Shown here piece after piece: positions 23,113 through 41,862 of a DNA stretch of 62,309 nt. Source of the stretch: Bacilli bacterium. GTDB lineage: Bacteria; Bacillota_I; Bacilli_A; RFN20; CAG-826. The notes under the pieces are model-generated. The model saw only the letters and a list, made by a program, of their open reading frames with translations. It was not told the DNA's origin and made no database searches. The DNA lies in NCBI GenBank assembly GCA_045597865.1, contig JAZLKX010000018.1, positions 1 through 62,309 of the forward strand, read 5' to 3'. Within the stretch, counting starts at the first letter, position 1, and each line of letters begins with the position of its first letter. Both the position numbers and the translations under genes were made by a program.

Positions 23113-23146
23113 AAAAACGCAACCATAGGATTATAGCTGCGTTTTA
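23113..23146 (-). terminator. Intrinsic terminator ending the 8-gene operon
   Basis: Minus strand AAAACGCAGC...GTTGCGTTTTTTT downstream of 23168. Confidence 0.6.
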
Positions 23147-23167: not shown

Positions 23168-24799
23168 TTAGCGAACAACGTGTTGCATTATATAGTATTC
23201 GTATGAACCTGTTGAATTATTGTAAGCAGAGAATGTGCTATAGCATGTATTGCTTGCAGAAATTACGAATGAACCTCTGTTAGTAAATGAATTATGTGAA
23301 TCTAAGCTTAATCTTGTTGTTCCTTTATTTGCATCTTGAATAACAATCTTGCCATCACTGTATGTGAAGACTAATTCACCAGTTGGTAAAGTAGAAAGTG
23401 CTGATAAGTTTGCCATTTCTTCTGCATAATAACGGCTTGGGCTTGTGACAGAGAAATTAATTAAATATGTCTTGCCGTCTTTCTTGCCATATGCAATGTT
23501 TGAAGATGTAATAGCATTAATTGAAGAATATTCAAATGGAACAATGACTTTTCCATCAATTGAGAATAAACCATACTTGCTGTTTTGCATTCCAACAAAT
23601 ACGTTTGCATTTGCATTGAAGCTTCTTCCAATTGATGAGAAGTCATTCAATAATTCAAGCTTCATTGAGTAAACTTTGCAGTTTTGTCCATCAACAATAA
23701 CATCGTTACCCATTGTGTCTTTAGCAACAATTGGATTATTAAGATTTGTAACATCATCATGCAAATTTAAATCTGCATCTACAATAAACATTCTGTAAAG
23801 ATTTTGATTGACAACCTTCTTGTCGGTTAATTCGTAAGCTTGAATTCCACCATAGGTGTAGAAATTACTTGCATCTTTAACAAGTTGGATGTAGCGGAAA
23901 TTTCCATAATAAGGAACTTCAATTTCTTTAGAAGCTCCGTTTGTGTAATCGATTCTTGTCATTGTGTAATCGTATTTATATCCGCCTCTTGAAATATCAA
24001 AATCTTTTGCATCTTCAGGTAATTCAATTTCGCTGTAGAAGAAGAAATACTTGCCAATTGTGAATGTTGGTTGTGCAAGTGGCATAATAAATTCAGAAAC
24101 AGTTCTGCCGTTGTATTCGACTTTTGCGTTGAAATCATGGAATGATGCTTTATATCCAGCATAACCAAAATCATCTAATTTGATTGCTGAACCATCATCT
24201 GTAATTTGATCACCGACATGGTATGTGTTATCAACAATATGTGAACCTTCAGCAGTGTAAGTTATATTGATAGATTGACCAGATGCATAAATTTCAAATT
24301 GAATAGAGGTATCAGAGTATGATCGTTCATATACACTGAATGAAGAATTTGAACTAAAAACTTCTTTTCCAAACATATCGTAGAAAACGAATCTGTAAGA
24401 AGTATTATTGTTAATGTATTCTTGAACAAGAACAAATTCGCCAAAATTAGAATAATTAATATTGTTGCTAAATGAAGTGTAATAAAGTCTATTAGAGCTT
24501 AAGGTGTTGTTAGCTGCAAAATATAAATAGGAATATCCATTATTATTATCTCTTAAAATATAGAACATTCCATAGTTTGAAGAAGAATACACAGTGTAAT
24601 CATTTAAATAGCTGTCAGCAACTCTCTTGAGTGAGGTGTATTCATAAGTTGATGAGGATGATGATGCATTATTTAAAATCATCTCTCTAGAAATAACGCT
24701 TTCCTTTTGTAATTTTAAAAGAGGATTTGCGTTTGTTTTTCCACATGAAGCAAGCGAAGCTGCTACAAGAGGAATAAATAAAAGTGCAGTTTTTTTCAT
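23168..24799 (-). CDS. Lipoprotein with WG-repeat-like segment
   Basis: Lipobox LASC; KYGLFSIDGKVIVPFEYSSI; Tyr/Ser-rich beta-type sequence. Confidence 0.6.
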   Translation of the reverse strand: MKKTALLFIPLVAASLASCGKTNANPLLKLQKESVISREMILNNASSSSSTYEYTSLKRVADSYLNDYTVYSSSNYGMFYILRDNNNGYSYLYFAANNTLSSNRLYYTSFSNNINYSNFGEFVLVQEYINNNTSYRFVFYDMFGKEVFSSNSSFSVYERSYSDTSIQFEIYASGQSINITYTAEGSHIVDNTYHVGDQITDDGSAIKLDDFGYAGYKASFHDFNAKVEYNGRTVSEFIMPLAQPTFTIGKYFFFYSEIELPEDAKDFDISRGGYKYDYTMTRIDYTNGASKEIEVPYYGNFRYIQLVKDASNFYTYGGIQAYELTDKKVVNQNLYRMFIVDADLNLHDDVTNLNNPIVAKDTMGNDVIVDGQNCKVYSMKLELLNDFSSIGRSFNANANVFVGMQNSKYGLFSIDGKVIVPFEYSSINAITSSNIAYGKKDGKTYLINFSVTSPSRYYAEEMANLSALSTLPTGELVFTYSDGKIVIQDANKGTTRLSLDSHNSFTNRGSFVISASNTCYSTFSAYNNSTGSYEYYIMQHVVR

Positions 24800-24817
24800 T
24801 TTTTTAATTTCCTTTCA

Positions 24818-26389
24818 TTAAATTTTTGTTAATTGATGAATGTATTCAACACATTTAGGCATAGAGTCTTGTCCAAATGTTTCATCAAGTTCTTGAATTA
24901 ACTCTTCTGAACGAAGTTTAATTACAACAGGGTTCTTTGATTCTAACTTACGGAGAATCTTTTTGCAAATCAAATCATCAACAGCATCACTTTCTTTACC
25001 ACCGCATGCGACATAGATTGAAACGTATTTTCTTAATTGTCTTAAGATACGGTTTCCAAATGTAATATGGAAGGTTTTGATCATGTATTGATCAAATGAT
25101 TTGATGTTTTCATACATACCAGGGGATAACGGATTATCTACAAGTGCTGTAGAAATCATACTTTCAAAATTATCCATTGATAATTTAATTGAAGATTGAG
25201 AGATACCACTTACCTCTTTTTCAGCTTTCTTATCAAGGTTAAGTACCATTGCTCTATCATAAACCTTGTCAGAAATGGAGAATGTTGAGTCATCGTTATT
25301 AGCAGTTCCAATAAACCAAACGTTATTAGGAAGCTCAATCTTACCCCTTTTCATCTTCTTAGGATCACCGAATGCTCCAGTTGAAGAAACAACTAATTGT
25401 CTTTCTTGACCATAAGGGAGTTCAAGTAATGATAAGAATTCAGAGAAATAATACTCTACACGGGCAATATTCATTTCATCTAATACGATAATGTGTAGCG
25501 TATTATCGAAATTAGCCTCATAGAGAACCTTTAAAATGGTTGTCTCGTTGAACTTACCAGTGAATTCATTATAGTAACCTAATAGATCGCTTTTTTCTTT
25601 CCACATGGATTGGATTGGAACAACTGTTGATTCAACTCCAATAAATTTACCAAAGGCTAAGGCTAAGGATGTTTTACCTGTACCAGATAAGCCTTGTAAG
25701 ATAAGAAGTTTTGAAACACCTAGGGATGCAATAAATGCTCTAATGTTTTCAATTGAATAATATAAGCCTAATTCGTTAGCGAGATACTCTTTAAAGTTAT
25801 CGCATAAATTTGAAAGAGTTAAACCGTTTGTGGTATTAATTTTTTCAAAGTCAGAATGCTTAGCATCGAAGTCGAGAAGTTCAGGAAATCTAGACATGAT
25901 TTTAACTTCATCAAGTTTGGCCTCATTTCTAATAAATTCTTGATATGATGGAATGCTTCCTGATGTTGCAGCGTTAACAATAGCGACCACTACAAGGTTT
26001 AAAATAAGAATTCCAACCAAGACAAAGAAGATAATTGTTAATGCCCCACCATCAAAATAGAATCTTTGATACTTTGAACCTAAAAATAGAATTAAGATTA
26101 CAATCAAAAATGCTACTGCAATAAATGAAGCAATAAACGAAACCAATTCAAGTTTTGAAACAGGTGTTGAGAAGAAATGACGTCTTTGTTCAAATGTTTG
26201 TTGATCTTTGCTACCAAATTGATCCTTATCAGCTTTAACCTTTCTAACTTTTTCAGGTTTTTCAACTGGTGGAATCTCTTTAGCTTCATCTTTACTACTT
26301 GAATTACGGAAAAGTCTTCTTAAATTTCCATCTGAATCATACTTAAGAATAAGCTGGAATCGTTTAAACATGAATTTTAATTTATTCAT
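24818..26389 (-). CDS. Membrane-anchored McrB-like AAA+ GTPase (2 TM)
   Basis: Two TM helices; GLSGTGKTS, LDEMNIARVEYYFS, GTANNDD (NxxD), KVYDRA. Confidence 0.75.
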   Translation of the reverse strand: MNKLKFMFKRFQLILKYDSDGNLRRLFRNSSSKDEAKEIPPVEKPEKVRKVKADKDQFGSKDQQTFEQRRHFFSTPVSKLELVSFIASFIAVAFLIVILILFLGSKYQRFYFDGGALTIIFFVLVGILILNLVVVAIVNAATSGSIPSYQEFIRNEAKLDEVKIMSRFPELLDFDAKHSDFEKINTTNGLTLSNLCDNFKEYLANELGLYYSIENIRAFIASLGVSKLLILQGLSGTGKTSLALAFGKFIGVESTVVPIQSMWKEKSDLLGYYNEFTGKFNETTILKVLYEANFDNTLHIIVLDEMNIARVEYYFSEFLSLLELPYGQERQLVVSSTGAFGDPKKMKRGKIELPNNVWFIGTANNDDSTFSISDKVYDRAMVLNLDKKAEKEVSGISQSSIKLSMDNFESMISTALVDNPLSPGMYENIKSFDQYMIKTFHITFGNRILRQLRKYVSIYVACGGKESDAVDDLICKKILRKLESKNPVVIKLRSEELIQELDETFGQDSMPKCVEYIHQLTKI

Positions 26390-28433
26390 CTAAGCCTCCT
26401 TCCTCGTTATTTTCGTTTTTAGTAGGCTCCTCTAAAGCTTCTTCAGCTTCAGATTGAACCTCGTTATTTTCTTCACTAGTAGGCACTTCTTCGCTATTAA
26501 TAGCTTCAGATTGAGCCTCGGAAGTTTCGCTTGAAGAGGCTTCTTCTTCAACGTTAGTGGCCTCAGGTTCTTCAGGAACTTCATCTTCCTTTGTGTTTTC
26601 TGGGGTTAACACTACATCCTCTTCTTTAAGCATTTTATATTCAGGGTTAGTAATTTCTTCCATACCCTCAATAACTTTATTAACGCTTTCTTGTTCTTCT
26701 TTTGTCTTCACAAGAGCTTCTGCTTCTTTTGAATCGACGTATTCATTTTCTTTAACAATTTCTTCTACATCTTCAGAAGCTTTTCTTTTAAAGTAAGAAT
26801 TACGAATTTCGCGTTTAGCCTCTACCCATGACGCTTTATATAGCTTATCAAAGGCTTCTTTTTCCTTTTCTAATTGAAGGAATCTATCCTTTGATTTGAA
26901 CTCACTTGGAAGAGGTGGGTTTCTATCTTGAGTTCTAATAGCAGTTAATTCTGCTTCTTTTAGGGTAATAGCATCTTCATATGATTTATGAATTTGCTCA
27001 ATTTCTACTGTAGCAGCTTCTTTAATAGCGGCTACTTCGTTTTGACAATTGCTCACTATACCCTTAAGTTCAAAGATGTATGCTTGCTTTGTAGAAACCT
27101 TATTTTCAAGATTTGCAATTCTTGCATCATAATCGTTAATCATTTGAGCTTTTTCAGCTTCAAATTGAGCACGCATTTGATTTAATTCTTCTTCATGTGC
27201 AAATCTTAGTTCGCTCATTCTTTCTTCAGCATCACGCTTTAAATCATCTATTTCTTCTTGATGCTTTTGATTTAATTCAGCAATTTCTTGTTCATGTTTT
27301 TCGACAATGTTTGTTATTTCTGCTTTGAGTTCTTCAACTCTTTCAGTGAGAACTTTATAGCCGTTTTCCAATAAGTAAAGATATTCTTTGATGTTGCTAT
27401 TCTTTTCTAAAGCGTTCTTCATCATTTCATCAAGACGCTTTAACATCTCATCTTCTTGTTCTTTTTTACGGCGTTTCTCTTCTTCTAAATAGTTGACTCT
27501 AAGCTTTTCTTCAAGGTGGTTATTGTATTCATAGCCAAGGAATGAAGATAACTCAATGATGTCTACAAATGCATCATTTTGTTCTTGATTAAGGGGACAA
27601 ATCATCTCTTCGCTCTCAATGATTTCGTATCCTGGCTTATCATATGCGCAGGCATAATCATAAACAGCGAGCATTTCCTTGAAGTTAATATTCATCTTAA
27701 GGACATTTGTTTTTGTAATAGGTCTGGTGACCATTGGTGCTTTTGCAACTTCCAACATAAGTGGAGTTTTAAGAAGAACCATAATGTCATTAAGCATTAA
27801 TTTAATTCTTTCAACGAGTTTAGCGATCTTTGAATTTGCCATTGCAATAGGATCGTTTAAACGTTTTTCGTTGAGTTCTAATGTGAAGTCAACAGTACGA
27901 TTGACAAGAACAACGTTTTTGCGAACAAAAACTTTGCCTTCATACTTATTTACTGTTTCTTCAATTTTATCTAACTTAGTCGCAATAAAATCTCTAAGGA
28001 AAGATAAGCACGCGTATAAAACACGGTTTTCATAAATCTTGTAATCAATTTCCCTAGAAATCATAAGGAGTTTCTCTGGAAGAACATTTTCTTGTTCAGC
28101 GTCTGGAAGCTTAGTGATGTAATCACTATGCTTTGCTAAATCAGAAATCGATTCCTTAGAAACTCTTCTAATTTTTTCGATTGGTAAAACTTCGCCTTCA
28201 TTACGAATGAATTGGCGATCTTCCTTAATACATTTCTCTAGATACACTACTTTTGATTCAATTTCGTTAATCCAGTCTTCATCAATCTTACATTCGACTT
28301 TGATTTTAGAAATGTAGTTAGGATCCTTTTTTAAAGGTTGGGAGGCTTTCTTAAAGAGGTGATCTTCACGATTACCCTCAAGATTAGCCTTGTAATCCTT
28401 AAACGCTCTATAAAAATAATCTAATTGTTCCAT
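26382..28433 (-). CDS. DUF2357-domain protein with long coiled coil and acidic tail
   Basis: DYKIYENR motif typical of DUF2357/McrC-N; E/K/Q heptad region approx aa 310-560; E-rich low-complexity C-terminus; no PD-(D/E)XK seen. Confidence 0.65.
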   Translation of the reverse strand: MEQLDYFYRAFKDYKANLEGNREDHLFKKASQPLKKDPNYISKIKVECKIDEDWINEIESKVVYLEKCIKEDRQFIRNEGEVLPIEKIRRVSKESISDLAKHSDYITKLPDAEQENVLPEKLLMISREIDYKIYENRVLYACLSFLRDFIATKLDKIEETVNKYEGKVFVRKNVVLVNRTVDFTLELNEKRLNDPIAMANSKIAKLVERIKLMLNDIMVLLKTPLMLEVAKAPMVTRPITKTNVLKMNINFKEMLAVYDYACAYDKPGYEIIESEEMICPLNQEQNDAFVDIIELSSFLGYEYNNHLEEKLRVNYLEEEKRRKKEQEDEMLKRLDEMMKNALEKNSNIKEYLYLLENGYKVLTERVEELKAEITNIVEKHEQEIAELNQKHQEEIDDLKRDAEERMSELRFAHEEELNQMRAQFEAEKAQMINDYDARIANLENKVSTKQAYIFELKGIVSNCQNEVAAIKEAATVEIEQIHKSYEDAITLKEAELTAIRTQDRNPPLPSEFKSKDRFLQLEKEKEAFDKLYKASWVEAKREIRNSYFKRKASEDVEEIVKENEYVDSKEAEALVKTKEEQESVNKVIEGMEEITNPEYKMLKEEDVVLTPENTKEDEVPEEPEATNVEEEASSSETSEAQSEAINSEEVPTSEENNEVQSEAEEALEEPTKNENNEEGGLDE

Positions 28434-28438
28434 ATACG

Positions 28439-29710
28439 TTATGCGTTATTTGCGAATTGACGGACAACCTCTATACAATTAACCATTTCATCTTGGCCAA
28501 AGATTTCATCAAACTTAGCAATTAAATCTTCAGCTTTGGATTTAATGTAAACTGGGTTTTGGGTTTCAAGCTTTCTTAAAATCTTCTTAGCAATGATGTC
28601 ATCAACAGCTTCAAGCTCTTGTCCACCACAGCCCATGTAAATTGGAACGTATTTTTCGATTTGCATCATAATACGGTTACCAAATGTAACATGGAAGGTT
28701 GAAAGAAGGTATGCGTCCAATTCTTCAATCCTTTTCTTTGTTTGCTCAGATAAGTGATAATTTTGTAAGGCTGATTCACATAGAGCATTGAAACAGTCTT
28801 TTGAAATATGAATAGAGTTACAATCTCCAACAGGAACGAATTGTTCTGCTCTATTATCAAAGTTCATAATCATAGCACGGTCATAAACCTTATCTGAGAT
28901 AGCGAATGTAGAGTCATCGTTATTTGCAGTGCCAATAAACCAAACGTTATTAGTAAGAGCAATCTTACCATGGTGCATCTTTCTTGGGTCACCATTAGCG
29001 CCTGCAGCAGCAACGACTAAATTTCTTGTACTTGATGGAGGAAGTTCAAGTAAAGAAAGGAATTCTGAGAAATAATATTCAACTCTAGCAATATTAAGTT
29101 CATCAAGAACAATAACGAACATCTTGTTAGAGAAAGCAGCTTCATAAAGCTTTTCAAGAATCATTGTTTCGTTAAACTTACCAGTAAATTCGTTATAGTA
29201 GCCTAGTAAATCGCTTCTTTCCTTCCACATTGGTTGAACAGGAACGACTGTGGAACTAACGTTAATGAACTTACCAAAAGCAACGGCAATGGATGTTTTA
29301 CCAGTACCAGACATACCTTGTAAAATCATGGTTTTAGAAACACCAAGTGAGGCGATGAACTTTCTAATATCAATAATGTTGTAATAAAGACCAAGGTCAT
29401 GGGCCATGTAGTTTCTAAAAGTATCGCAAAGGGATGCTAGTGTTAAATTATCTGTACTCTTTTCTTCAGTCCAATCTGGATTGTTTCTGTCAAATTCAAG
29501 TAATTCTGGGAATCTTGACATTTTCTTTTTACGGTCTTTTTCTGCTTGATCCGTATTGTATTGACGTTTAAATTCTTGTTTTTTCTTAACGTCTAAAATC
29601 GTTGAGATTGTAATAACAAGAATAAGCAATGCCACTATAACGACATAAACGGCAATAGCGGTATTGGATGTAAAGAAATTATTTGAGTCAAATGTTCTTA
29701 ATGAATTCAT
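28439..29710 (-). CDS. Membrane-anchored McrB-like AAA+ GTPase (1 TM)
   Basis: One TM; GMSGTGKTS, LDELNIARVEYYFS, GTANNDD, KVYDRA; close paralog of 24818..26389. Confidence 0.75.
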   Translation of the reverse strand: MNSLRTFDSNNFFTSNTAIAVYVVIVALLILVITISTILDVKKKQEFKRQYNTDQAEKDRKKKMSRFPELLEFDRNNPDWTEEKSTDNLTLASLCDTFRNYMAHDLGLYYNIIDIRKFIASLGVSKTMILQGMSGTGKTSIAVAFGKFINVSSTVVPVQPMWKERSDLLGYYNEFTGKFNETMILEKLYEAAFSNKMFVIVLDELNIARVEYYFSEFLSLLELPPSSTRNLVVAAAGANGDPRKMHHGKIALTNNVWFIGTANNDDSTFAISDKVYDRAMIMNFDNRAEQFVPVGDCNSIHISKDCFNALCESALQNYHLSEQTKKRIEELDAYLLSTFHVTFGNRIMMQIEKYVPIYMGCGGQELEAVDDIIAKKILRKLETQNPVYIKSKAEDLIAKFDEIFGQDEMVNCIEVVRQFANNA

Positions 29711-29739
29711 AATGTTTTCCTCCTTTTTGACTAGTTTCT

Positions 29740-32700
29740 TTATTCTGTTGTTTCTGGAGCTTGAAGAACTTCAATTTCTCCAGAGGAATTATAATGCCAA
29801 TAATTGTTCTTATCTCCTGGGTGTTTATCGGCATAATAATAAATTGTTGCAGTTTTATTTTTGGTATTTGTAAAGCCTGAAAAGTCTTTAGCAGTACCAT
29901 GGAAATATATTGCAGATAAGCCAGTAAAGTGCTCTAGGGTATCAGTTTTTAAACCTTTTTCCACTACAACAGCATCTGCTTCAATCGTACTTGAATTATA
30001 TGTAAAGTTTCTATTAACCTTAACAAGTTCAACATTTAGTATGTTATAGAATGTAGATGATGTTGCACAAACAATGGTTGCATTTCCAAAGTCAATATTG
30101 CTAACCCATGTTCCATAAAATACATTGCTACCTAAATTAACTGTACCACTTGCGAAGGTAACACTGTTAACTATGTCGCTTGTTGAATAATTGCTATAGT
30201 AATAGTAAGAGAAGGCATAATCACCAATAGTAATGCTTGTTGAATCAACCTTAATGCTTCTAACGGTTGGCATGCCGTAGAAAGCATATGATTCAAGAGT
30301 TGTAACCTTTGAAGGAATTACAATTGAAGTTAACTTATTGCTTGCAAATGCATATGAGCCTATGTAAGTTAATCCTGTTGGGAAAGAAATTGAAGATAAT
30401 GAACAGTTTTGGAATGCACAACTTTCAATTCTTGTAACGCCTGAAGGAAGATTAATTGAAGTAAGTGAACTACAATTTGATAGGAATCCTGAAGGAATAG
30501 TTGTTACCGAAGAATTAAGTGTTAATGTTTTTAATTCATCATTACCGTATAACATGCTGCTTGACAATGTTCCGGTATAACTAGATAAATCGACAGATGT
30601 AAGACTACAATAAGCAAATGCTTCGCTACCGATTGACTTAACAGTTGATGGAATAACAAGGGTTGTTAAACCAGTTGAAGCAAATGCACCATATCCAATA
30701 GTTGATAATTTTGAAGGGAAAGTGAATGATTTTAGATCGTAGCAGCAATTAAATGCAGAACTACCAATTGTGGTAAGTGAGGAAGCGCTGCTTGTGTCAA
30801 CACTAACTAACTCATCGTTGTTATAGAAAGCACTATTACCAATTGAAACAAGATTAGAACCAAGTTTTAAACTCCTAATATCGTTTTGAATGAATGCATT
30901 ATCACCAATAGTAGTTAAACTATTTGGGAAATTAACTGTAGACAATCTACTACAATATTCAAATGCGTAATTGCCAATTGTTTCAAGTGATGTGGCACTT
31001 AAATTAATATTTGTGATATTTGTGCAGTTAGAGAATGCATAATCTCCAATTGTAACTAAGCCACTACCAAAGGTAACGCTATTAATACTTTGACAATAAT
31101 AGAATGCTTGATAACCAATACTCTTTAAAGTGGATGGGAATGTAACACTAGTGAGTGTTGAGTTATTTGAGAATGCTGATTGTCCAATAGCAGTAACACC
31201 CTCTGGGATCTTTAAGCTAGTAAGACTTGATGGAACTCTAATAATTTGAGTGTAATCAGCACTATATAAGACTTTTTCATATGAAACGTATGTTGTGTTT
31301 CCTTCTTCACATACGTATTCTTTAACGTTGTAATTTGAAGGGGCGTTGTCAAGACTTGACATGTTGCTTGTAACAACGAATGTACCTCTCCATTGATATG
31401 GAACACAAACTACTCTACTTCTATCATTGGAATAAACTATTCCATTAATTACTTTGAAATAGGTATTTTTACCGTTATCAACAAAGTTTTCAAAATTGTA
31501 ACATGAATTAAATGCATAAGAACCAATTGATGTTAAATTCACAGGAATTTCAAATTCAGTGAAACAACATTCAGAGAATGCATTAGAACCAATTGAAGTT
31601 ACATTATCACCTAATGAAACGTTTCTTAAATTTGAGCAGTAATAGAAAGCACTAGAACCAATTGAACATCTAGCGTCATTAATGGTTAATGTTTCCAAAT
31701 AATAGCATGAACTGAATGCTGAATCAGAAATTGTCTCGACTGAACTTGGAATAGTAACGCTTCTAAGTATGTTCTTATTATAGAAAGCATTATAACCAAT
31801 AGTTTTAACACCTTCAGGTATAACTAAATTAGTTTCATCAAAGCCTGGAAGTGCATAATAAAGTGTTTCTTTATCTTTAGAATATAAAATATTGTCTTCA
31901 ATTACTAAGAATGGGTTTTCTTCATCAATATTAATTTCCGTAATTGAACTTGAATAAATAGTTTCTCTATCAAGACTAACTAGATCTGGGCCTAAGCTAA
32001 TTGAATGAAGGTTAGGACAATCATAGAAAACATTGTAGCTCATTGTTTGAAGCTTATTGGAAAGATAAATCTCTCTTAAATTTGTACAATAAGCAAAAGC
32101 AAAATAATCAATGAAGGTAACGTTATCTTCAATAAAGACTTTTGTAATTTCAGAATGATTTTCAAATGCATAGCTTGAAATACCTGCAACATCATATGTT
32201 TTATAACCATTGTTATATGTCTTTGGAATATAAATGTCGCTCTCTGAATAGCCTGAATAGCTGTAGACATAACATGTTGATGTTGCGTCATCAAAAGAGT
32301 AATTAAGACCATAAGTTCCAGATCTCACTACTTTCTTATATAAAGCGTAAACATCAATATCGTTATAAACTTTATCAAGGTTTCTATCCCAAGATGTGAA
32401 TTGGTATTCATAACGACCGTCTAGTGGTCTAGTAGGATTTGAGTTTGGATAAGTTGATGCTTCACCATAATTTACGTAGTCTGTATAAAGTAAAGTACCA
32501 TCATAGTTCTTATAATTAACTGTACAAACAGTTGGGCATGATTCATAACATGCGTGGACTATTGTGTCTTCAACGATGTAATCAATATCTACATCCCAAC
32601 CAATAAATGTAAAGCTTTCGCCACTTGAAGCTGGTTTTACTGGTGTATTACCGCTATAAACGGCTGTTCCACCATAAGGAACACTTGTAATATCCAAAAC

Positions 32701-33276: not shown

Positions 33277-36200
33277 AAATAACTACCTTTCCTGGTTTTA
33301 ACTCAATACTATAGTTGTAGGTTACCTCTACCTTTTCGCCCATTGTGTTGTAGCGATAAATATGAGGTGTACCAATTGGATTAATGACGCCTTCTTCGCC
33401 AGTTATATCAATTGGTTTATTAACTTTTTCATATTCAATAAATTCACCTGGAGCAAGCGTACCCACTAAGAAGTAAGGTGTTGAATCAAATGGAAGACCA
33501 TCAAATTCTTTTGAACCGCTTGGTGATGTAATTACAAGTTGACGTTTAACAACATAACGTTCAACATCTCCAAATGTTAAATCAAAGTCATTATCACGTA
33601 TGTCAGTGTCTCTTGTTGAGTGATAAGTTGGGCTTGCTACAAAGTCGTTTCCGTATACATAAGTACCAACGTCTATCATCTTTTTAAGCTCTGTCCATGT
33701 CATATCTAACGAATAAGTAAGTGGCAATTCACCATCTGAAATGTATGATGGGCTTGAGAACTCTGTAACATTGGTTTGAAGAATTTCATCATTCTCAAAT
33801 CCGTGATCAGTACCATCATATGTTAATTTTTCTTCGATAAGTGATATTTCAATTGGGCATGGTTCAATAACAATGGATCCATAAATAAATGTAATATCGT
33901 AATCAAGTGTGACATCTAATCCTTGAGGATTTGTAATTTTTACTGTAACTTCATTGTCACCTGAATCATCAACGTGTTTAGCGCTTGTTGCAGAGAAATT
34001 TGAGTAAGCAATTTCATCTCCATCTGCTAGTGTTCCTTTTGTAATAGCGGCAGATGAACTTTCAAATGGTAAGCCATCAAATACTTTCTCGTGGTCTTCT
34101 GTTGTAATTGTGATTGGTCTAGGATCAATCCAAATATTTTGAGCTTTTAAGGTAATGTTGTAATTGCTTGTTACATCAATATCTTCACTTGTATAAACTT
34201 CAACACTTGTTGGCATATTCTTTGTAACGCCATCAACACCATCAAATGTATGAGTGATGGATGGTAAGCCATAGAACTTCAAGTAATCACCCTCAAGAAG
34301 TCTATCAACTGAGTGAAGTGTTGAAGTAAATGGTGTTCCGTCATAAACCTTTGAGTTTTCAAGCATCACTACGCTTATGTCGCGTGGTCTAATAGTTAAA
34401 ATACCGTTATTTTCAAATGTAACGTTATAGTTATCTGTTGCATCATAAAGTCCAAGAGATGGTGAGTTATGAGTAATTTTAAACTTGCTGTAGTCGAAAT
34501 TTAATACGTACATGCCAGCATCAATACCATTACAAGTGACTTCAATGCCACTAATCGATTCGTATTCAGCTAAGCCATCTCCTACTACTTCCCAAGTTTT
34601 AACCTTGCTTGAAATATCAGAGTTGCGATCGTATTCATCAATACAATCAATTGTTCTAACAGTGATGTTACGTTTGTTAATGATTAAGGTGCCATTTGTA
34701 ACAACTGTAATGTCATAGCAATCTGTAACATCAACATAACCATTGCCTTCTTCAAGGTGTTCAATCTTAATTTCACCAAGGGCTGAACATGGGGTTTCAC
34801 TTACTTTGAATGGGTTGTTAGTTGGAGTAAATCTAATAACGTCAGTGTCTGCTAAGGAACCAGAAGAAATTTGAACTGGTTTGCTAACATAATTATAAAT
34901 ATGGTCACCCATATACGTAATAGTTTGGGATGAAATGTTAATTGTGATTGGACGTTTATTAATGATAATTGAGTCTACTTTAGATGCTTCATCTGGAATA
35001 ACGTTGTAGTTTCCAAGAACGTTTGTTCCGTATCTAGAATCAATAATCTTTGTTAATTCGAAGTCTTCATTGGTGTATGTTCCAACTTTGTAGAAACTTG
35101 AATTATTAAAGCATGTTGCATCAATTACATCTTTGCTTAAAAGAGCTGAGGTGTCATACCAATAACCTGAAGTATGGTATTTGCCATCATATGTGTATGT
35201 ATTAGTGATAGCTTTGACTTCAAGATCAATCTTATTAATCTTAATTGTGCCTGGGTCTTTGCTAATGAGGTAACAATCAGTAAAGTCTTCACGTGTGTTT
35301 TTATCAACAATGGTAACGTTTAAAGCTTTTTCGTGTGTTCCAACATCAGTAGCAGTTCCATCTGCAGTAACAATGATGTCATCTTTGTCTGCAAGGCTAC
35401 CTTCAGTAATAGACCAGTTAGTATTAGTGATTGAATAACCTGAATAATCAACTTCTACATTTTCACCTTGAACTGAGATTTCTCTTTGGGCAATGGTTGT
35501 ATAACCATAGTCATAATCAATAATGTAGTTACTTGAAATATCTACATCACCTTCATAGATCTTTGCAGTAAATGTATTTTCGTATGTGCTTGCGCGGACA
35601 AATTGTTCAGGATTTGTCATTGTGTATTTAACTGACAACTTCTCTGTAATACCATCACTACCTTCTTTGATATAGATTTCATCACCAGTGAATGTAAAAG
35701 AATGATCTTCGCCATCATAGGTTAAATCAATGTCTTTACTCGCAAAGGTAATAGGCTTCTTTTCAATTTCAAGACTTCCGTAATTGGTTTTAATTGAATA
35801 GTGCTTAGTTACGTCTAAACCGTTTTCATCCTTAATAATGTATTCTTGAACGTTATCTTTAACGCCTACATTTGAAAACGCTGTAGAGGAAACTACATTT
35901 AATACGTCACCACTAACAAGTGATCCTGAGGTAATAGTATAACTTTCATCACTTAAGTTAGTGCCATCAAAACCTTTTACTGAGGAACCACTAGCTATAG
36001 TAATGCTTCTTGCTAAAATATTGATATCTTTTGGATAAGATGCAAATGTATAGTTTTTAGTAACATCTTTTCCATCAAGAGATAAAACTTTAAGCTTAGT
36101 GCTATCAACCATTACTTTAAATGTATTGGTTTGTTTATTTTGATAAATATAGCTAATTGTACTTGTGTCACAATGATCTGATTTAACAAAGTCTTCAGTA

Positions 36201-36631
36201 AAAACTGCAGATGGAGTGTCACCATATGTCATTTCGTTAGTGACAATTTGAACTCCAATCTCTTTTGGAACAATATCAAAGTATTGGGTTTTACCATAAT
36301 AGTAAGAACCACCGCTTTTCTTTCCTAAGCTTCTAAACTTGTATGAACCTACATCACTTGGACATTCTTCAAACCATTCTTCACCATCTCTAGTCGCAAA
36401 TTCATACTTAACTGAAGACATGAATGCATTTGATTTATAAGTAATGTTTTCGCCATACTCATAACGAGCTTTAAGCTTTTCTACATCCGAAACAATGCCT
36501 TTAGTAGTAATTAATGTAACGGTTGTAGCTACGACAAGAGCACTAATACCACCAATTAAGAAACGATGCTTAAAAGCGCTATGACGAATCTTAGCGAGTT
36601 TAATAATCTTCTGCTCGTACTCTTTATACAT
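33263..36631 (-). CDS. Membrane-anchored surface protein with MBG-like Ig-fold repeats
   Basis: N-terminal TM; repeated RPITI....K.YDG...G.L..GD...DVT.NY.I...G.L.I units. Confidence 0.7.
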   Translation of the reverse strand: MYKEYEQKIIKLAKIRHSAFKHRFLIGGISALVVATTVTLITTKGIVSDVEKLKARYEYGENITYKSNAFMSSVKYEFATRDGEEWFEECPSDVGSYKFRSLGKKSGGSYYYGKTQYFDIVPKEIGVQIVTNEMTYGDTPSAVFTEDFVKSDHCDTSTISYIYQNKQTNTFKVMVDSTKLKVLSLDGKDVTKNYTFASYPKDINILARSITIASGSSVKGFDGTNLSDESYTITSGSLVSGDVLNVVSSTAFSNVGVKDNVQEYIIKDENGLDVTKHYSIKTNYGSLEIEKKPITFASKDIDLTYDGEDHSFTFTGDEIYIKEGSDGITEKLSVKYTMTNPEQFVRASTYENTFTAKIYEGDVDISSNYIIDYDYGYTTIAQREISVQGENVEVDYSGYSITNTNWSITEGSLADKDDIIVTADGTATDVGTHEKALNVTIVDKNTREDFTDCYLISKDPGTIKINKIDLEVKAITNTYTYDGKYHTSGYWYDTSALLSKDVIDATCFNNSSFYKVGTYTNEDFELTKIIDSRYGTNVLGNYNVIPDEASKVDSIIINKRPITINISSQTITYMGDHIYNYVSKPVQISSGSLADTDVIRFTPTNNPFKVSETPCSALGEIKIEHLEEGNGYVDVTDCYDITVVTNGTLIINKRNITVRTIDCIDEYDRNSDISSKVKTWEVVGDGLAEYESISGIEVTCNGIDAGMYVLNFDYSKFKITHNSPSLGLYDATDNYNVTFENNGILTIRPRDISVVMLENSKVYDGTPFTSTLHSVDRLLEGDYLKFYGLPSITHTFDGVDGVTKNMPTSVEVYTSEDIDVTSNYNITLKAQNIWIDPRPITITTEDHEKVFDGLPFESSSAAITKGTLADGDEIAYSNFSATSAKHVDDSGDNEVTVKITNPQGLDVTLDYDITFIYGSIVIEPCPIEISLIEEKLTYDGTDHGFENDEILQTNVTEFSSPSYISDGELPLTYSLDMTWTELKKMIDVGTYVYGNDFVASPTYHSTRDTDIRDNDFDLTFGDVERYVVKRQLVITSPSGSKEFDGLPFDSTPYFLVGTLAPGEFIEYEKVNKPIDITGEEGVINPIGTPHIYRYNTMGEKVEVTYNYSIELKPGKVVIYEKD

Positions 36632-36632
36632 C

Positions 36633-39600
36633 CTATAATACCGTCAACTTTCCATAGACAAAGCTAACAATGTAGTAGTTAGTAACGTCGTTTCCATATG
36701 TATCAGTAATACTTAATGTGTCATAGTCAATAAAGTTATCTGAAACACCAGGTTTAGTTTGTGAACCTGTCATCTTAACACTTACTGTATGGTTTGCAGG
36801 CATTGCACCTGAAAGAACATTTACAGTAAATGTATTGTTAGTTAATGGGGTTCCATCACGAACCTTTGTAGCATCACCTGAAATAATTTGAATGCTACAT
36901 TGAGTAATCCTGTATGATTCGTAAATTAAATTTACTCTGCCTTTGTATTCACTTGTTACATCTGCACCGTATTCATTGAAGATCTTTGGTTGTGCACGTG
37001 TAACGTATGTACCTGGAATGGATTCACCAGTTTCAGTATTTGCCTCAAGATGATGGCCTGGTTTAAGGCTACCTATGAGTGATGCGTGTGCAGTCATTGG
37101 AGTTCCGTCAAATGGTTTAGACGATTGATCTGGAGAAACTCTAATTGTGATATCTGCATCTGGATTTGCAGGTCCAAATGGATTATATGGATTTAAGTGT
37201 GTGCCTGTACCAGTGTCATCTGGAGTTCCATCAATTGCAATCCAACCAAGATTTGAAATATAAACTTCACACCAAGCGTATGAGTTATTTGTGGTAACAG
37301 TTGCGTAACCACCGTTTGATTCTGAAGCATAACCAGTAACGTAACGAGCTGGAATACCAAGTGATCTATAAATAGCAGTTAATGCTGAAGCAAAGTCACT
37401 TGCTACACCACTCTTGGCTGTGTATAAGAAGTGTTCGATATAGTTAGAACCTGTTGGGTAGGTTTCAAATCCATAATCGTGTTTTGCGTATTCTTTAATA
37501 AAGTTAGAAATTCTAATAATATTTGAAATAGATGTACCTTGAAGGTTGTTTTCTGAAACAAATCTACTTGCAACACCTTTAGTGTAATTATCTAATTGAG
37601 TGTAATGTGAGTATGCGTAATCTCTATACGCCATTTCTTCTAATCTAATTTCGTCATTAGAGAATGTAACGTTGTTGACTAAAGACTCAAGGTTAATTGA
37701 GTTAACTGTAAGTGGAGAGAATGTGTAATCAGTTGGATTATCAACATTGTGTTTAGTGTAGGCATCACTACCTAATGTATCAATTTGGGTTTGGCTATAC
37801 ATTGGAAGTAATGAGTACTTATGGTATTCAAAGTCTTTGTATTCAATTGATATGTCGTATTCATTTAATCCAATGCGGTCAATCTTATCGCTTGCAAAGT
37901 AAAGTGGAGAAATTGAAGTCATGTCAAAATTATCGACCTTAGTTGGTTTAGTCCAAACGTTATGATCTAAGTTTTGATATGAATACTCTCTAAATAAGAG
38001 TTTACCTTTTGCTTCTGTCTCGTATGAGAAAATTGAAGTTGGTTTTTCTCTATCAACTGGTGTAGATGCAATATTTCCAGGAGTACCTGCTCCACCATGA
38101 CCAAGTCCACCTGCTAAAGCGTATTTAGCTTGTAATGTATAGGATTCATCTGCTGGATATGGTTTCATGTGCCATCCAGTAAAGACTGTTTCTTTTTTAT
38201 TAACTTTGGAAACTGGTTCACCTAAAGTTTCTTCTGGGTAAACTGGCATTTCACCATCACTTACGTAATTTTCATACAAAAGTGAGAAGTCGTCATTTCT
38301 AAATGTAACTATGTGTTTTTCGCCATAAGCTGGATTATAGGCTTCATAAGTAGCGAAATCATATTCAATCCAGACACCACCTGAGAGAAAAAGGAATTTA
38401 TCAAACTTACCAGTCCATGTGTAAGTCCAGCCATTGCTATCTTCTCTAGTTAAGTCTTTGCCTTTATAGTGGGATTCACCATAAACCTCCAAATCACCAT
38501 CTATAATCTTGTAAACGTATTGGTCAATAGTTAACAAAGTGAAGTCCCAGTCATAGAAGTAAGCTTGAATTATATCTCCTTCTTCCTTTTCGGTTTCACC
38601 ACCACCTGTACCGCTTCCGCCTTGGCCTCCGCCACCAGAGCCGCCTCCACCAGGACCGCCAGTACCGATATCTTCTGGACCAATGGAGTGTTCTTTTGGA
38701 ATAGCGTCAAATAAGGCATATGTTGTTGTGTCATCATAAACTTCAGTTACATCAACACTCCAGCCTTTAAATTCATATGTATAGGTTTCATCTTCTTCTC
38801 TAGTTGGGGTTTCACCAGAATAGTAAGCTGTTTCGCCTGCGTATACATGTGTTTCGTGTAAAACAGTTTTGTCCCAGTTACAGAAAGTGACGGTTAATTC
38901 ATCATCGATCTCATCAAACACTGGGTAAACAGAGAAGTCATTTTGAACGTTCTCGAGCATTCTATCCCAACCTCTAAACTCATAAATCTTGTGATCTGAG
39001 TCTGGTTTAGTTGGTAAAGCGCCTTCGTAATGGGCAGTTTCACCACGTTCCACTGTATCAACAAATAAAATGGTATCGTCATAGTTTCTAAATGTAACTG
39101 TGTATTGCTCAACAGCTTCTTGATATACAGCGTGCACTGTTAAGTCTTCAGTTACAGTTTCAATTGATTTGTCCCATCCAATAAAGTCATAACGGACTCC
39201 GTTTTCACTTGGTTTAATTGGAAGATCTCCATCGTAGTAGGCACTTTCTCCTACAGATACGACATCATAACCAAGTAATGTGTCATCATAGTTAAGGAAT
39301 GTAACACGTACAGTAAGTGGTTCTTCAACAAATTGGGCAGTAAATGTTGTGTCTTCCGTAACACCATTAACGTTATTGTCCCAACCTGAGAATGTATATT
39401 TAAAGTTACCAGTTGATTCTTTAACTGGTGTAAATCCTCTATATTCTGCTGTTCCGTTATATGGAACTCTTGAATCTTTGTAAAGGAAAGTTCCGTCATA
39501 GTTCACAAATGTTGCAGTGAAATAACGGTCTTCTGGTTTATATGTAGCAGTATATGTTGCATTTTTGGTTGCTGCTACAATTCTTGGATCCCATCCATCA

Positions 39601-40052
39601 AAGACATAATCAAATGCTGGTGAACTTTCTCTTGTTGGAACTTCACCAATGTATTGTGGAGTAGAACCATATTCAAAATAATCTTCGTATAACTTCTCGC
39701 CATCATAGTTAACAAAGGAAATCAAAAAGTCTTTCTTCTTTGTCTCATACACAGCGTGGAAGGACATATCAGAGGTAATGTTAGTGAGTGATTGATCCCA
39801 GCCTCTAAATAAGTACTTGTTCATTGTGGTTTCATCTTTAACTGGTGTTGGTCCATCATAAACAGCGTCATGTGATGGAGCAACATTACAAGAGTATAAG
39901 AAAGTACCATCTTCATTGTAGAATCTACATTTGTATCTTAAAGATGGATCTGCAAGTTTAATTGCACCACTTGCAGATAAACCAACAAAACCTGCTACAA
40001 GTACAGATAATGCAGCGGATGAAATAATAATAGCTTTATATAACTTCTTCAT
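36633..40052 (-). CDS. Surface protein: Flg_new-like repeats + Gly linker + inactive transglutaminase-like domain + MBG-like repeats
   Basis: N-terminal signal/TM; RSLGIPARYVTGY and AWCEVYISNLGWIAIDGTP mark a transglutaminase-like fold. Confidence 0.75.
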   Translation of the reverse strand: MKKLYKAIIISSAALSVLVAGFVGLSASGAIKLADPSLRYKCRFYNEDGTFLYSCNVAPSHDAVYDGPTPVKDETTMNKYLFRGWDQSLTNITSDMSFHAVYETKKKDFLISFVNYDGEKLYEDYFEYGSTPQYIGEVPTRESSPAFDYVFDGWDPRIVAATKNATYTATYKPEDRYFTATFVNYDGTFLYKDSRVPYNGTAEYRGFTPVKESTGNFKYTFSGWDNNVNGVTEDTTFTAQFVEEPLTVRVTFLNYDDTLLGYDVVSVGESAYYDGDLPIKPSENGVRYDFIGWDKSIETVTEDLTVHAVYQEAVEQYTVTFRNYDDTILFVDTVERGETAHYEGALPTKPDSDHKIYEFRGWDRMLENVQNDFSVYPVFDEIDDELTVTFCNWDKTVLHETHVYAGETAYYSGETPTREEDETYTYEFKGWSVDVTEVYDDTTTYALFDAIPKEHSIGPEDIGTGGPGGGGSGGGGQGGSGTGGGETEKEEGDIIQAYFYDWDFTLLTIDQYVYKIIDGDLEVYGESHYKGKDLTREDSNGWTYTWTGKFDKFLFLSGGVWIEYDFATYEAYNPAYGEKHIVTFRNDDFSLLYENYVSDGEMPVYPEETLGEPVSKVNKKETVFTGWHMKPYPADESYTLQAKYALAGGLGHGGAGTPGNIASTPVDREKPTSIFSYETEAKGKLLFREYSYQNLDHNVWTKPTKVDNFDMTSISPLYFASDKIDRIGLNEYDISIEYKDFEYHKYSLLPMYSQTQIDTLGSDAYTKHNVDNPTDYTFSPLTVNSINLESLVNNVTFSNDEIRLEEMAYRDYAYSHYTQLDNYTKGVASRFVSENNLQGTSISNIIRISNFIKEYAKHDYGFETYPTGSNYIEHFLYTAKSGVASDFASALTAIYRSLGIPARYVTGYASESNGGYATVTTNNSYAWCEVYISNLGWIAIDGTPDDTGTGTHLNPYNPFGPANPDADITIRVSPDQSSKPFDGTPMTAHASLIGSLKPGHHLEANTETGESIPGTYVTRAQPKIFNEYGADVTSEYKGRVNLIYESYRITQCSIQIISGDATKVRDGTPLTNNTFTVNVLSGAMPANHTVSVKMTGSQTKPGVSDNFIDYDTLSITDTYGNDVTNYYIVSFVYGKLTVL

Positions 40053-40062
40053 AGCTAATTCC

Positions 40063-41862
40063 TCATTCCTCTTCCTCTGCTACATCATAAACTGGGTAGA
40101 CAGTTATTGAATCGGTAATATAACTTGTGTCTTTTGACCAACCTATAAATCCCAATTCTGGATCTAAAAAGGAATAATCTTCACCACCATAGGTTGAAGA
40201 TTCTCCTTCATAAACAAAGTCTTCAAAAAGAAGTTCACCATTGCTACTACGGTAAGTGACAATGTATTCTCCATATGAAGTTACGTATTCTGCGTATGTA
40301 TTAAATGATGCTTCAGGAACAGAATCAAGGTATTCCTCTTTATCCCAATGAACAAAGTAGAATTCTCTATCACCTTGAGCTGGTCTAACAGGTGTTGGGC
40401 CATAGTATTCTGCTTTTTCTCCAACTTCCGCTACATCGGAGTCATATAAAATACCGTTATAGTTAATAAAGTTAATTGAGCTATAAAGTTGATGAGCGCC
40501 ACCGCCTTCTTGAACAAGTTCATATTGAGCAGTGAAAACTGTATTCTTTGTTAAATCTTTTAATGATTTGTCCCAACCAATAAATTTCCAGACATTAATT
40601 CTGTCTCCAACTCTAACAGGGGTTGGTCCAAAGTATGTAACAGTACCACCGTATTCAACGTATTCGGTTGATAAGTATGTTCCGTCATAGTTTTGGAAAA
40701 TACACATAATGTCCTTATGTATTACTTCCCAAGTTGGATAAACATCAATTGATCCAACAATAAAGTCAGTGTCTCTATCCCAACCAGTAAAGATATATTT
40801 AGTGGTTTCTGTACTTGGTCTAGATGGAAGTTCACCTTTGTATTCAACACCTTCACCATAGCTAGCTTTAGATTCTTGAAGTATTGTGCCATCATAGTTT
40901 TTGAAAATAACATCGTATTCACGTAACTTCTTATCAAATTCAGCTGTGATAACCATATCTTGGTGAATATTAGTGAGTGGTTTGTTCCATCCTGAGAAGA
41001 AATATGAATAAGTACCATCACTTGGATGATAAGGAACAGAACCAACGTATTCTGCTGTTCCATTATTTCCGACATAATCTACATAAAGAAGTTCGCCATC
41101 ATAGTTAAGGAAGTCAACTTCATATCTTGCTACTTCTTCATCAAATACAGCGTATGTTGAAAAATCTTCTACAACGTTGGTAATACTTTTATCCCAACCT
41201 GAGAATGTGTAGTCAATTCTATTTGTGGATGGTTTAATTGGAATGATACCTTCATACTCAGCATCTGAACCATAAGATACTTCATCTACAAATAAAACTT
41301 TGTCATCATAATTTAAAAATGTAACGTGATACTTTGTCGGAACAAGAGTGTATTCAGCGTTAAATACTGTGTCATGTGTTATAGCTTCAAGAGGTTTGTT
41401 CCAACCAATAAAGTCATAATAACCATATTCATCTTGAGGTTTAACTGGAGCTGCACCAATGTAAGTAGCTTTTGAACCATATGGAATTTGATCTGTATAT
41501 AAAACAGTTCCGTCAAAGTTCACAAACTTACATTCAATATCTCTTTTCTCTGAGAAGTATTGAGCATAGAAAATTGTATCTTGTTTTACATTTTCTAAGG
41601 ATTTATCCCAGTTAGAGAATGTATATTTCTTTGTTTCGTCTGGTTCTCTTGTAGGAACTGGACCTTCGTAGACTAAAGCTTGGTCTGCTCTAAACTCGGT
41701 TGTCCAAATAACTGAATCATCGTAGTTACGGAACTCAGCTTTGCATAATTTCTTGATAGTTAAGTCGATTGCTCCACTTGCGTCTAAAATTGCAAATGTG
41801 CCAAAAGCTGCAACGCAAACGCCACAAGCAATTGGTAAAATCCATAAACGACTAAACTTCAT
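40063..41862 (-). CDS. Membrane-anchored protein made of about 8 InlB-B/Flg_new-like repeats
   Basis: N-terminal hydrophobic helix, then tandem F.NYDG..L...V.YG..A.Y.G..P.KP...Y.F.GWD repeats. Confidence 0.75.
   Translation of the reverse strand: MKFSRLWILPIACGVCVAAFGTFAILDASGAIDLTIKKLCKAEFRNYDDSVIWTTEFRADQALVYEGPVPTREPDETKKYTFSNWDKSLENVKQDTIFYAQYFSEKRDIECKFVNFDGTVLYTDQIPYGSKATYIGAAPVKPQDEYGYYDFIGWNKPLEAITHDTVFNAEYTLVPTKYHVTFLNYDDKVLFVDEVSYGSDAEYEGIIPIKPSTNRIDYTFSGWDKSITNVVEDFSTYAVFDEEVARYEVDFLNYDGELLYVDYVGNNGTAEYVGSVPYHPSDGTYSYFFSGWNKPLTNIHQDMVITAEFDKKLREYDVIFKNYDGTILQESKASYGEGVEYKGELPSRPSTETTKYIFTGWDRDTDFIVGSIDVYPTWEVIHKDIMCIFQNYDGTYLSTEYVEYGGTVTYFGPTPVRVGDRINVWKFIGWDKSLKDLTKNTVFTAQYELVQEGGGAHQLYSSINFINYNGILYDSDVAEVGEKAEYYGPTPVRPAQGDREFYFVHWDKEEYLDSVPEASFNTYAEYVTSYGEYIVTYRSSNGELLFEDFVYEGESSTYGGEDYSFLDPELGFIGWSKDTSYITDSITVYPVYDVAEEEE

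Follow-up and report, generated by a model that had tools for sequence, protein, structure and literature searches.

Membrane-anchored McrB-like GTPases encoded beside giant surface proteins in a Bacilli bacterium: a candidate envelope system of gut Bacillota

The 62,309-nucleotide (nt) contig JAZLKX010000018.1 (assembly GCA_045597865.1) of a Bacilli bacterium (RFN20; CAG-826), analysed at its full length and hereafter called the window, carries on its minus strand a cluster of eight genes (23168-41868) in which two McrB-like GTPases (genes 5 and 7) and the partner encoded between them (gene 6) stand in one series with five predicted exported proteins made of repeats (genes 1-4 and 8). The genes and the other features of the cluster are listed in Table 1. 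Going from gene 1 to gene 8, the successive spacings are 10 nt, 1 nt, an overlap of 14 nt, 29 nt, 5 nt, an overlap of 8 nt and 18 nt, and the coordinates of the open reading frames (ORFs) thus bear out the co-directional, closely packed layout of the initial annotation, which had described the eight genes as one operon and suggested a surface apparatus powered or signalled by the cytoplasmic GTPase.

As for transcription, the layout suggests that genes 1 to 8 form a single unit, with gaps of at most 29 nt and one strong terminator-like structure, at its end. This structure, a hairpin of 14 pairs with a T-run, is the terminator that had been proposed behind the cluster; the only minus-strand hairpins within the cluster are two weak ones of 5-6 pairs, and terminator-like sites in total occur at the level of shuffled sequences (9 against 8.6). 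Shine-Dalgarno-like motifs precede genes 2, 4, 5, 7 and 8. The single promoter in front of gene 1 fared less well: a candidate site is present in the spacer of about 400 nt before this gene, but promoter-like sites are rarer than in shuffled sequences (6 against 10.7 expected; 40 against 83 inside the operon), so that one promoter is compatible with the sequence and not demonstrable from it.

Table 1. Genes and other features of the cluster, with positions in the window
Feature	Position	Strand	Description
Gene 1	40063-41862 (or to 41868)	-	ORF, 599 amino acids (aa)
Gene 2	36633-40052	-	ORF, 1139 aa
Gene 3	33263-36631	-	ORF, 1122 aa
Gene 4	29740-33276	-	ORF, 1178 aa
Gene 5	28439-29710	-	ORF, 423 aa
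Gene 6	26382-28433	-	ORF, 683 aa
Gene 7	24818-26389	-	ORF, 523 aa
Gene 8	23168-24799	-	ORF, 543 aa
Promoter-like site TTGCCT-16 nt-TATAAT	41926..41899	-	10/12 consensus match, 5' of gene 1
Intrinsic-terminator-like hairpin and T-run	23145..23114	-	14 pairs, about 22 nt past the gene-8 stop
Cytoplasmic tail of gene 3 (aa 1-23)	36563..36631	-	Predicted; motif Y-x-x-Y-x-x-(K/R)-I-x-(K/R)-x-A
Transglutaminase-like core of gene 2 (aa 843-941)	37230..37526	-	Pfam, 1.3e-19; catalytic Cys/His replaced by Ala/Tyr, Asp kept
Most conserved stretch of gene 6 (aa 73-128)	28050..28217	-	Proposed GTPase-contacting stalk
Single predicted helix of gene 6 (aa 348-503)	26925..27392	-	Model; about 155 residues, coiled-coil-like; length and sequence vary among relatives

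The conservation of this arrangement was followed through gene 6. A scan of one genome per species (185,579 species genomes) gave 255 that encode a relative of gene 6; the best 80 of these 255 loci, all from metagenome-assembled genomes labelled Bacilli, Clostridia, Christensenellaceae, Oscillospiraceae and similar, were compared by calling the ORFs of each locus and matching them against the window proteins. Flanks of 10 kb were fetched. At least 4 kb is present on both flanks in 29 loci, called well flanked in what follows, and on at least one flank in 40, while 37 of the 80 are contigs shorter than 4 kb with little beyond the gene-6 homologue (e.g., L009-L013 and L021-L023). A gene-6-like ORF was found in 79 of the 80 loci; in L012 none was obtained by this ORF-calling procedure.

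A full GTPase gene lies on both sides of the gene-6-like ORF in 33 loci. In all 29 well-flanked loci, this triad adjoins giant surface-protein genes like genes 2 and 3 in the same orientation; when one flank of at least 4 kb is taken as enough, triad and surface genes occur together in 37 of 40 loci. In the three exceptions (L033, L056 and L059), the sequence stops within 700 bp on the downstream side of the gene-6-like ORF, which leaves no room for the partner genes. The order of the genes is not constant: the window, L001, L003 and L007 share the series gene 2, gene 3, leucine-rich repeat (LRR) gene, GTPase, DUF2357-type partner, GTPase, and in all the other informative loci the triad comes first, followed by the gene-2-like and the gene-3-like gene. 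The gaps between core genes are short throughout, with a median of 17 nt and no more than 60 nt in 205 of 229 cases. Because the adjacency persists through rearrangement, a reading of genes 5-7 as a stray restriction module with unrelated surface genes next to it was rejected. The initial annotation had proposed a check of co-occurrence across Bacilli and Clostridia, with triads mostly devoid of surface genes as the adverse outcome; as a conserved neighbourhood in both classes, the coupling of GTPase and surface genes is real.

The apparatus did not hold in its full extent of eight genes. No relative of gene 8 was found in any of the 80 loci, an LRR_5-type gene is present in 8 of the 29 well-flanked loci (12 of 79 overall), and a transglutaminase core could be recognised in 13 of these 29; gene 3 is the most constant partner of the triad. 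The conserved core, as judged from these comparisons, is made of genes 2-7. Genes 1 and 8 are regarded as lineage-specific passengers in the same transcription unit, tentatively so for gene 1, since in each of the three close relatives its position falls outside the flanks fetched.

Regarding the GTPases, both genes 5 and 7 match the Pfam family AAA_5 (29.8 and 30.4 bits, cut-off 22), and a phmmer search of the PDB with gene 5 returned E. coli McrB alone (6hz4, 6ut6 and 7vsr; E 6e-4 to 1.5e-3). In the gapless alignment with 6hz4, GMSGTGKT of gene 5 is paired with GPPGVGKT, DELNIA with DEINRA, and NNDD with NTAD; Walker A, DE(L/M)N and NNDD do not vary among 24 homologues, and gene 7 has them as well. 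In NCBIfam, McrB is the best match of gene 5, and gene 7 has no McrB match. The two proteins are thus predicted to be membrane-anchored, McrB-like GTPases with intact motifs. Their anchors stand where McrB has its DNA-binding domain, and each paralogue has its own: gene 5 starts with one transmembrane (TM) helix bearing the motif TSxxAIxxY, and gene 7 with a basic stretch of 80 aa followed by a hairpin of two TM helices (85-103 and 119-137). This distinction is kept across Bacilli and Clostridia, where the one TM helix starting with TSxxA(I/L)xxY is always that of the upstream GTPase, and the basic N-terminus with the two-TM hairpin always that of the downstream one.

In the window, the two GTPases share 57% amino acid identity and 74-75% nt identity over their best pieces. 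Over the 32 loci compared, the GTPase domains of the two genes in one locus have a median protein identity of 95.9%, with 95% or more in 19; at the DNA level, identity is at least 98% over 1,081-1,179 nt in 25 of the 32, and the anchor regions differ. Homogenised pairs occur for instance in L002, L004, L014, L017-L019 and L024, and are not seen in the window, L001, L003, L005 and L075. The near-identity of the domains looks like the pattern expected of recurrent gene conversion under pressure for interchangeability, such as a mixed ring might impose. It is also the probable reason why many assemblies are interrupted within the GTPase genes that stand on either side of the gene-6 homologue, and the system would consequently be under-represented in the annotated gene neighbourhoods of metagenome-assembled genomes. 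The two copies are direct repeats about 3 kb apart, and could loop out the gene-6 homologue.

In 32 loci, and not in the window, the first GTPase gene is preceded by a gene whose product weakly resembles genes 5 and 7. In well-flanked loci of the Clostridia type this protein has about 1100 aa (L017:5181-8522, L019:5258-8623 and L037:5162-8374); its N-terminal half is of Glyco_hydro_3_C and Fn3-like type in the three proteins scanned, and TM helices occur near residue 700 in three of the four examined. The L019 protein, read through, has no signal peptide, and its C-terminus is AAA-like without a Walker A motif.

As for gene 6, its assignment comes from its family. A precomputed match to PF09823 is found in 12 of the 120 gene-6 homologues listed, one of which is named as a DUF2357 protein; DUF2357 is matched by 5 of 22 aligned homologues (best 2.9e-7) and by the L037 homologue, the latter with 26 bits against a cut-off of 23.3 at its aa 77-155; and the protein-atlas neighbours of gene 6 are DUF2357 clusters in 30 of 30 cases (0.92). 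The family comprises 1,619 clusters at 50% identity (E up to 0.001), or 687 at E up to 1e-30; the best 150 of the 1,619 are close, full-length relatives, and no bridge to a nuclease-bearing McrC appears among the matches listed. Family scans and the structural model detected no nuclease or other effector domain in gene 6 and 21 aligned homologues. Gene 6 is therefore best described, from this family evidence, as a DUF2357-like protein without a nuclease.

According to the account of McrBC in PMC11090510, DUF2357 corresponds to the N-domain of McrC, and a stalk-like extension of this domain makes contact with McrB in the hexamer and activates it. By analogy with this stalk, residues 73-128 of gene 6, the most conserved stretch, are read as the putative GTPase-contacting element; its invariant residues are R73, Q74, F75, I76, I85, E86, L99, H102 and P119. 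The AlphaFold model of gene 6 has a mean pLDDT (predicted local distance difference test) of 70, with values below 50 at 74-128, inside this very stretch, where the DUF2357 match of the L037 homologue also falls, and presents a folded N-domain, a conserved C-terminal helix and a disordered acidic tail; only helices follow residue 345, and the chain is helical from 283 to 594 and disordered beyond. The C-terminal helix (aa 505-547 in gene 6; F-D-E-L-E ... F-D-x-F/Y ... A-W-K) is doubled in the homologues P0170, P0174 and P0189 (columns 640-700 and 900-960 of alignment A1), which suggests a discrete binding module. Prediction of a complex between gene 5 (60-423) and gene 6 (1-345), run without controls, gave a score of 0.00 that counts neither for nor against binding.

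The exported proteins have their anchors at the N-terminus. Hydropathy gives genes 1-3 one hydrophobic N-terminal segment each and none further on, so that all that follows the anchor is predicted to be extracellular, and genes 4 and 8 have a lipobox; the anchoring of all five proteins, as first proposed, stands to this extent, the segment of genes 1 and 2 being either an anchor or a cleaved signal peptide. After its hydrophobic N-terminus, gene 1 has eight copies of a 69-aa module possibly similar to the InlB B-repeat. Gene 2 continues from its putative anchor with copies of the same 69-aa repeat (six good and one weak), a Gly-rich linker, the transglutaminase-like core and C-terminal repeats predicted to be MBG-like; gene 3 has a 23-aa cytoplasmic tail, one TM helix and repeats predicted to be MBG/YDG-like; and gene 4 has four 69-aa repeats and a BspA-type LRR_5 region (3.3e-155, six stretches). 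The chain of shared modules proposed earlier is confirmed by the 69-aa repeat common to genes 1, 2 and 4 and by the last 189 residues of gene 2, which resemble the gene-3 repeats (BLASTP 5e-10, in several registers).

The family labels first given to these modules were upheld for LRR_5; those of Flg_new (PF09479; E = 0.019 in gene 1, under the cut-off), MBG (no Pfam match on genes 2 and 3, gene 3 having no Pfam match at all) and WG (WG_beta_rep on gene 8, 18.4 bits against 25.6) are not above threshold on the window proteins. The InlB B-repeat is the prototype of the Flg_new family. The AlphaFold model of the 69-aa repeat has a pLDDT of 92, and Foldseek gives the InlB B-repeat structure 2y5p as its best PDB match, with a probability of 0.92-0.94 and a TM-score of 0.57-0.63, yet with E 0.15-0.3; a profile search of the PDB with the repeat returned no significant match, and hhalign against a true Flg_new copy, taken from the 2857-aa ORF described below, gave E 0.006 at a probability of 6%. 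The MBG/YDG-like character of the other repeats is drawn from relatives, since the gene-3-like protein of L017 matches MBG_2 (1.7e-6) and the gene-2-like protein of L037 matches YDG (1.4e-7), and from the protein-atlas neighbours of gene 3, which are MBG, YDG and AgI_II_C2 clusters with scores of 0.88-0.90; PDB searches with gene 3 and with the 917-aa protein of L017 gave no matches.

The tail that precedes the TM helix in the gene-3 family (about 22 residues) was compared in 36 sequences, the window and 35 from the loci. Y2 and Y5 are present in 36 of 36, as is G45 after the TM helix, and I9, K/R11, A13, K/R21 and K/R23 are each kept in 29-34; overall, the tail is no better conserved than the first outer domain (mean identity to the window 35% against 32-33%). 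Two invariant tyrosines in the short tail of a fast-evolving surface protein suggest an intracellular contact. Other giants with LRR_5 repeats are encoded upstream in loci of the Clostridia type (L036:317-5296, L045:339-5195, L033:1242-5057 and L056:1189-5214); they have no N-terminal signal or anchor, and their conserved first domain, about 90 aa long, looks by eye like the start of small accessory ORFs (family A4) in loci of the Bacilli type.

The transglutaminase-like core of gene 2 matches Transglut_core (PF01841) with 70.9 bits against a cut-off of 23, and its best solved match is the periplasmic domain of TgpA from Pseudomonas aeruginosa (6g49, 1e-9); no other Transglut_core was found among the 42 window ORFs scanned for families. 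The catalytic triad reads A-Y-D in the window against C-H-D/E in 24 of 25 relatives, L003 and L007, the two closest ones that contain the region, included. To judge from these residues, the domain of the window is a pseudoenzyme in an otherwise intact cluster, and can at most bind.

Regarding the surroundings of the cluster, the next ORF downstream (21614-23002, minus strand) encodes a lipoprotein with weak matches to CBAH (1e-4) and to the C45 proenzyme (2e-7), far below equivalog level; it starts past the terminator and is a separate unit. Its long, TTG-started version overlaps the terminator, so that the true start is probably the internal MKRTKL. Another giant surface protein, of 2857 aa, is encoded 5.5 kb upstream (47358-55931, minus strand) and has above-threshold Flg_new (7e-24) and Big_3 matches. 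Both flanks (42270-61005 and 19451-20341) hold many small regulatory or toxin-antitoxin-like genes, among them those for HTH_3 (helix-turn-helix, HTH) proteins, two DUF3990 proteins, HTH proteins with SocA/Panacea, nucleotidyltransferase or Fic domains, and HipA_C; the cluster seems to be located in a variable region.

From this evidence, genes 2-7 are read as the local version of a conserved, coupled envelope system of gut Bacillota that does not act in restriction, with a probability of about 0.5. Its cytoplasmic side would be a module derived from McrBC, made of two GTPases with their own anchors and of gene 6, in which the nuclease is replaced by the long helix and the conserved C-terminal helix; its outer side would be made of N-terminally anchored giants built from MBG/YDG-like and InlB-B-repeat-like modules, one with a transglutaminase-like domain and one with BspA-type LRRs. 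What was observed is the domain content, the intact GTPase motifs, the lack of a nuclease, the neighbourhood maintained in two classes despite rearrangement, the paralogue-specific anchors and the YxxY tail.

The relationship with McrBC has two sides. Like it, the cluster encodes AAA_5-family GTPases with Walker A, Walker B and an N-x-x-D-type signature beside a DUF2357-type partner, and the most conserved stretch of this partner is the candidate ring-contacting stalk. Unlike McrBC, the window GTPases have TM anchors instead of an N-domain that binds DNA or modified bases, and they come as a pair of paralogues encoded one on each side of the partner gene. In the partner, a C-terminal PD-(D/E)xK nuclease is absent and a helix about 155 residues long is present, and systems of this type adjoin the giant surface-protein genes.

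No description of the cluster was found in the literature searched (DUF2357, PDC-M26, CoCoPALM, and McrB with transglutaminase, MBG, LRR_5 or BspA), and the only printed relative encountered there is CoCoPALM (Bell et al. 2024, PMC11090510), to which the paper gives one paragraph and defers the full description. It consists of a GTPase fused to a TM/FtsB-like segment, coiled-coils, and a SipA-like signal peptidase as neighbour; the paper's own HHpred E-value for the FtsB likeness is 1.2 (supplementary file 2). In common with that paragraph, the window has McrB homologues with a TM-containing N-terminal segment, a coiled-coil-like element on the McrC homologue (the long helix of gene 6), and a proposed tie to a surface structure and not to DNA. 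The differences are that no coiled-coil is evident on the window GTPases, and that no SipA-like or S24/S26 peptidase was found among the window proteins, 28 neighbour proteins (from L001, L003, L004, L017, L019 and L037) or three accessory ORF families of the related loci (A3-A5) compared with the PDB, by searches less sensitive than the HHpred of the paper. CoCoPALM is placed in the NxD clade (PMC11090510); NNDD of the window fits either NxxD or an NxD followed by a second D, and the gapless HMMER alignment with McrB favours NxxD. That the cluster is CoCoPALM is possible, though the odds lean against it.

Several points weigh against reading genes 2-7 as a coupled envelope system. Gene 6 itself has no Pfam match, and none to DUF2357 even at E up to 10; hhalign of its family with E. 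coli McrC shows no similarity (E 0.91), and Foldseek with the full model found nothing in the PDB at E 0.001 or better, the top entries being long-helix proteins. The likeness of gene 5 to the McrB equivalog of NCBIfam is weak (21.7 bits, cut-off 637), the PADLOC model PDC-M26A matches genes 5 and 7 (8e-45 and 1e-47), and the flanks of the window have their toxin-antitoxin-like genes. The transglutaminase-like domain is dead in the window and undetected in 16 of the 29 well-flanked loci; moreover, it is outside the cell and the GTPases inside, so that any coupling must cross through short TM segments. The neighbourhood counts rest on the best 80 of 255 loci, with the contexts of the GTPase family, much larger than the gene-6 set (at least 7,989 passing relatives among 8,000 candidates scored), outside the sample; and coupling, co-transcription, binding and GTPase activity are all deduced from sequence and neighbourhood.

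Part of this evidence would also fit a chaperone for biogenesis, in which the giant anchored proteins would be assisted by the GTPase ring and gene 6 in their insertion, folding or export, with no role for these two once assembly is complete, in the way MoxR-type ATPases are thought to mature their partners. All the partners are very large proteins of about 750-2100 aa anchored at the N-terminus, the conserved tail of the gene-3 family might serve as a tag for recognition, and the combination of an AAA_5-family ATPase, an adaptor and a membrane transglutaminase-like protein is a known three-gene theme, the YebA type as presented in PMC3495828. However, a channel-forming or Sec-like component was found in none of the 28 neighbour proteins scanned, the ring of McrBC is described as engaging the McrC stalk without threading a substrate (PMC11090510), and a simple chaperone needs neither two anchor-specific paralogues nor a long helix, which makes this explanation unlikely.

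The same theme in its MoxR-vWA(DUF58)-transglutaminase form leads to the next alternative, membrane-proximal proteolysis or cross-linking, where the GTPase module would regulate a transglutaminase-like enzyme that acts on the repeat proteins. The closeness of the gene-2 core to TgpA and the C-H-D/E residues kept in nearly all relatives speak for it. In Pseudomonas aeruginosa, the genes PA2875 and PA2874 presumably encode the MoxR and DUF58 proteins. These two genes lie upstream of tgpA and are co-transcribed with it, and the periplasmic domain of TgpA has transglutaminase activity, as reported in PMC3507681. The operons resemble the cluster in having an AAA_5-family NTPase, an adaptor and a membrane-anchored transglutaminase-like protein together, and the PFNA cluster of bifidobacteria (PMC8430577) also has a large FN3 surface protein. 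In the window, by contrast, the NTPase is McrB-like, membrane-anchored and duplicated, the adaptor is DUF2357-like rather than vWA/DUF58, and the transglutaminase-like domain is part of a giant repeat protein; no MoxR, vWA or DUF58 match was found in window genes 1-11. The core was not detected in more than half of the well-flanked loci, the first downstream protein of the L017 type has no Pfam match, and the window domain has lost its Cys and His with the rest of the cluster intact, so that the enzyme cannot be the indispensable output and this alternative is improbable. The parallel with these operons that the initial annotation had drawn, with a different AAA+ clade, is sound, and they may be regarded as functionally analogous, with AAA+ and adaptor proteins from other families.

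As for defence against phages or plasmids, genes 5-7 would act as a Type IV (McrBC-like) variant or in abortive infection, and the surface proteins would be unrelated neighbours or phage sensors or decoys. An McrB-like GTPase with a DUF2357 partner is the hallmark of McrBC (PMC11090510), and the PDC-M26A matches and the neighbouring HTH/Fic, SocA-Panacea, HipA_C, DUF3990 and nucleotidyltransferase genes go in this direction. However, the best-scoring of the two matched stretches of PDC-M26A covers positions 300-430 of the 724 of the model, and PDC-x models are presented in PMC11811056 as unpublished and unvalidated candidates, so that the match alone does not make the cluster a defence system. 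In addition, the GTPases have anchors in the place of the DNA-binding domain, no nuclease or other effector accompanies them in gene 6 or its aligned homologues, and searches of 72,556 plasmids gave no match and those of 50,697 phage records a single weak one (23.6% identity); moreover, unrelated neighbours would not keep to the triad in every well-flanked locus despite rearrangement, and defence is accordingly considered very doubtful.

Returning to the coupled envelope system, its operation may be imagined as follows. The GTPases would assemble into membrane-bound rings, possibly mixed ones, into which gene 6 would insert its conserved stalk and stimulate GTP hydrolysis, as McrC does for McrB. 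The long helix and the C-terminal helix of gene 6, or else the ring or the anchors of the GTPases, could then engage the TM helices or the tails of the gene-2 and gene-3 proteins. In this way, GTP turnover would control from within the cell how the surface layer, read as adhesive because of its LRR_5, B-repeat and MBG modules, is assembled or processed, or which conformation it takes, and would not serve DNA restriction. Any particular mechanical version of this scheme is much less probable than the system itself. The boldest version, a speculation with a small chance of being right, is a new class of envelope machine, in which a nuclease-less derivative of McrBC has become a GTP-driven motor or switch at the membrane; by means of its McrC-like shaft and its long helix, this device would exert a pull on the invariant cytoplasmic tails of giant MBG-repeat fibrils, or use them for signalling, giving inside-out control of the extension, retraction or shedding of adhesins, for which integrin activation, or gliding mycoplasmas with their internal motor and surface legs, would be loose parallels.

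In conclusion, McrBC modules are usually regarded as restriction enzymes, and this cluster suggests that a widespread McrBC lineage has been converted into a membrane device with a link to the cell surface. If this is true, the functional range of AAA+ GTPase/McrC pairs would be wider, and matches of defence finders to McrB-like models, such as that of PDC-M26A here, could be misleading. For annotators, it would be useful that homogenised GTPase paralogues account for the frequent breaks of metagenome assemblies at these loci. The system would also offer a handle on how gut Bacilli and Christensenellales build or regulate giant adhesin-like proteins, and, should the motor or switch be real, it would be present in hundreds of uncultured species of gut Bacillota.

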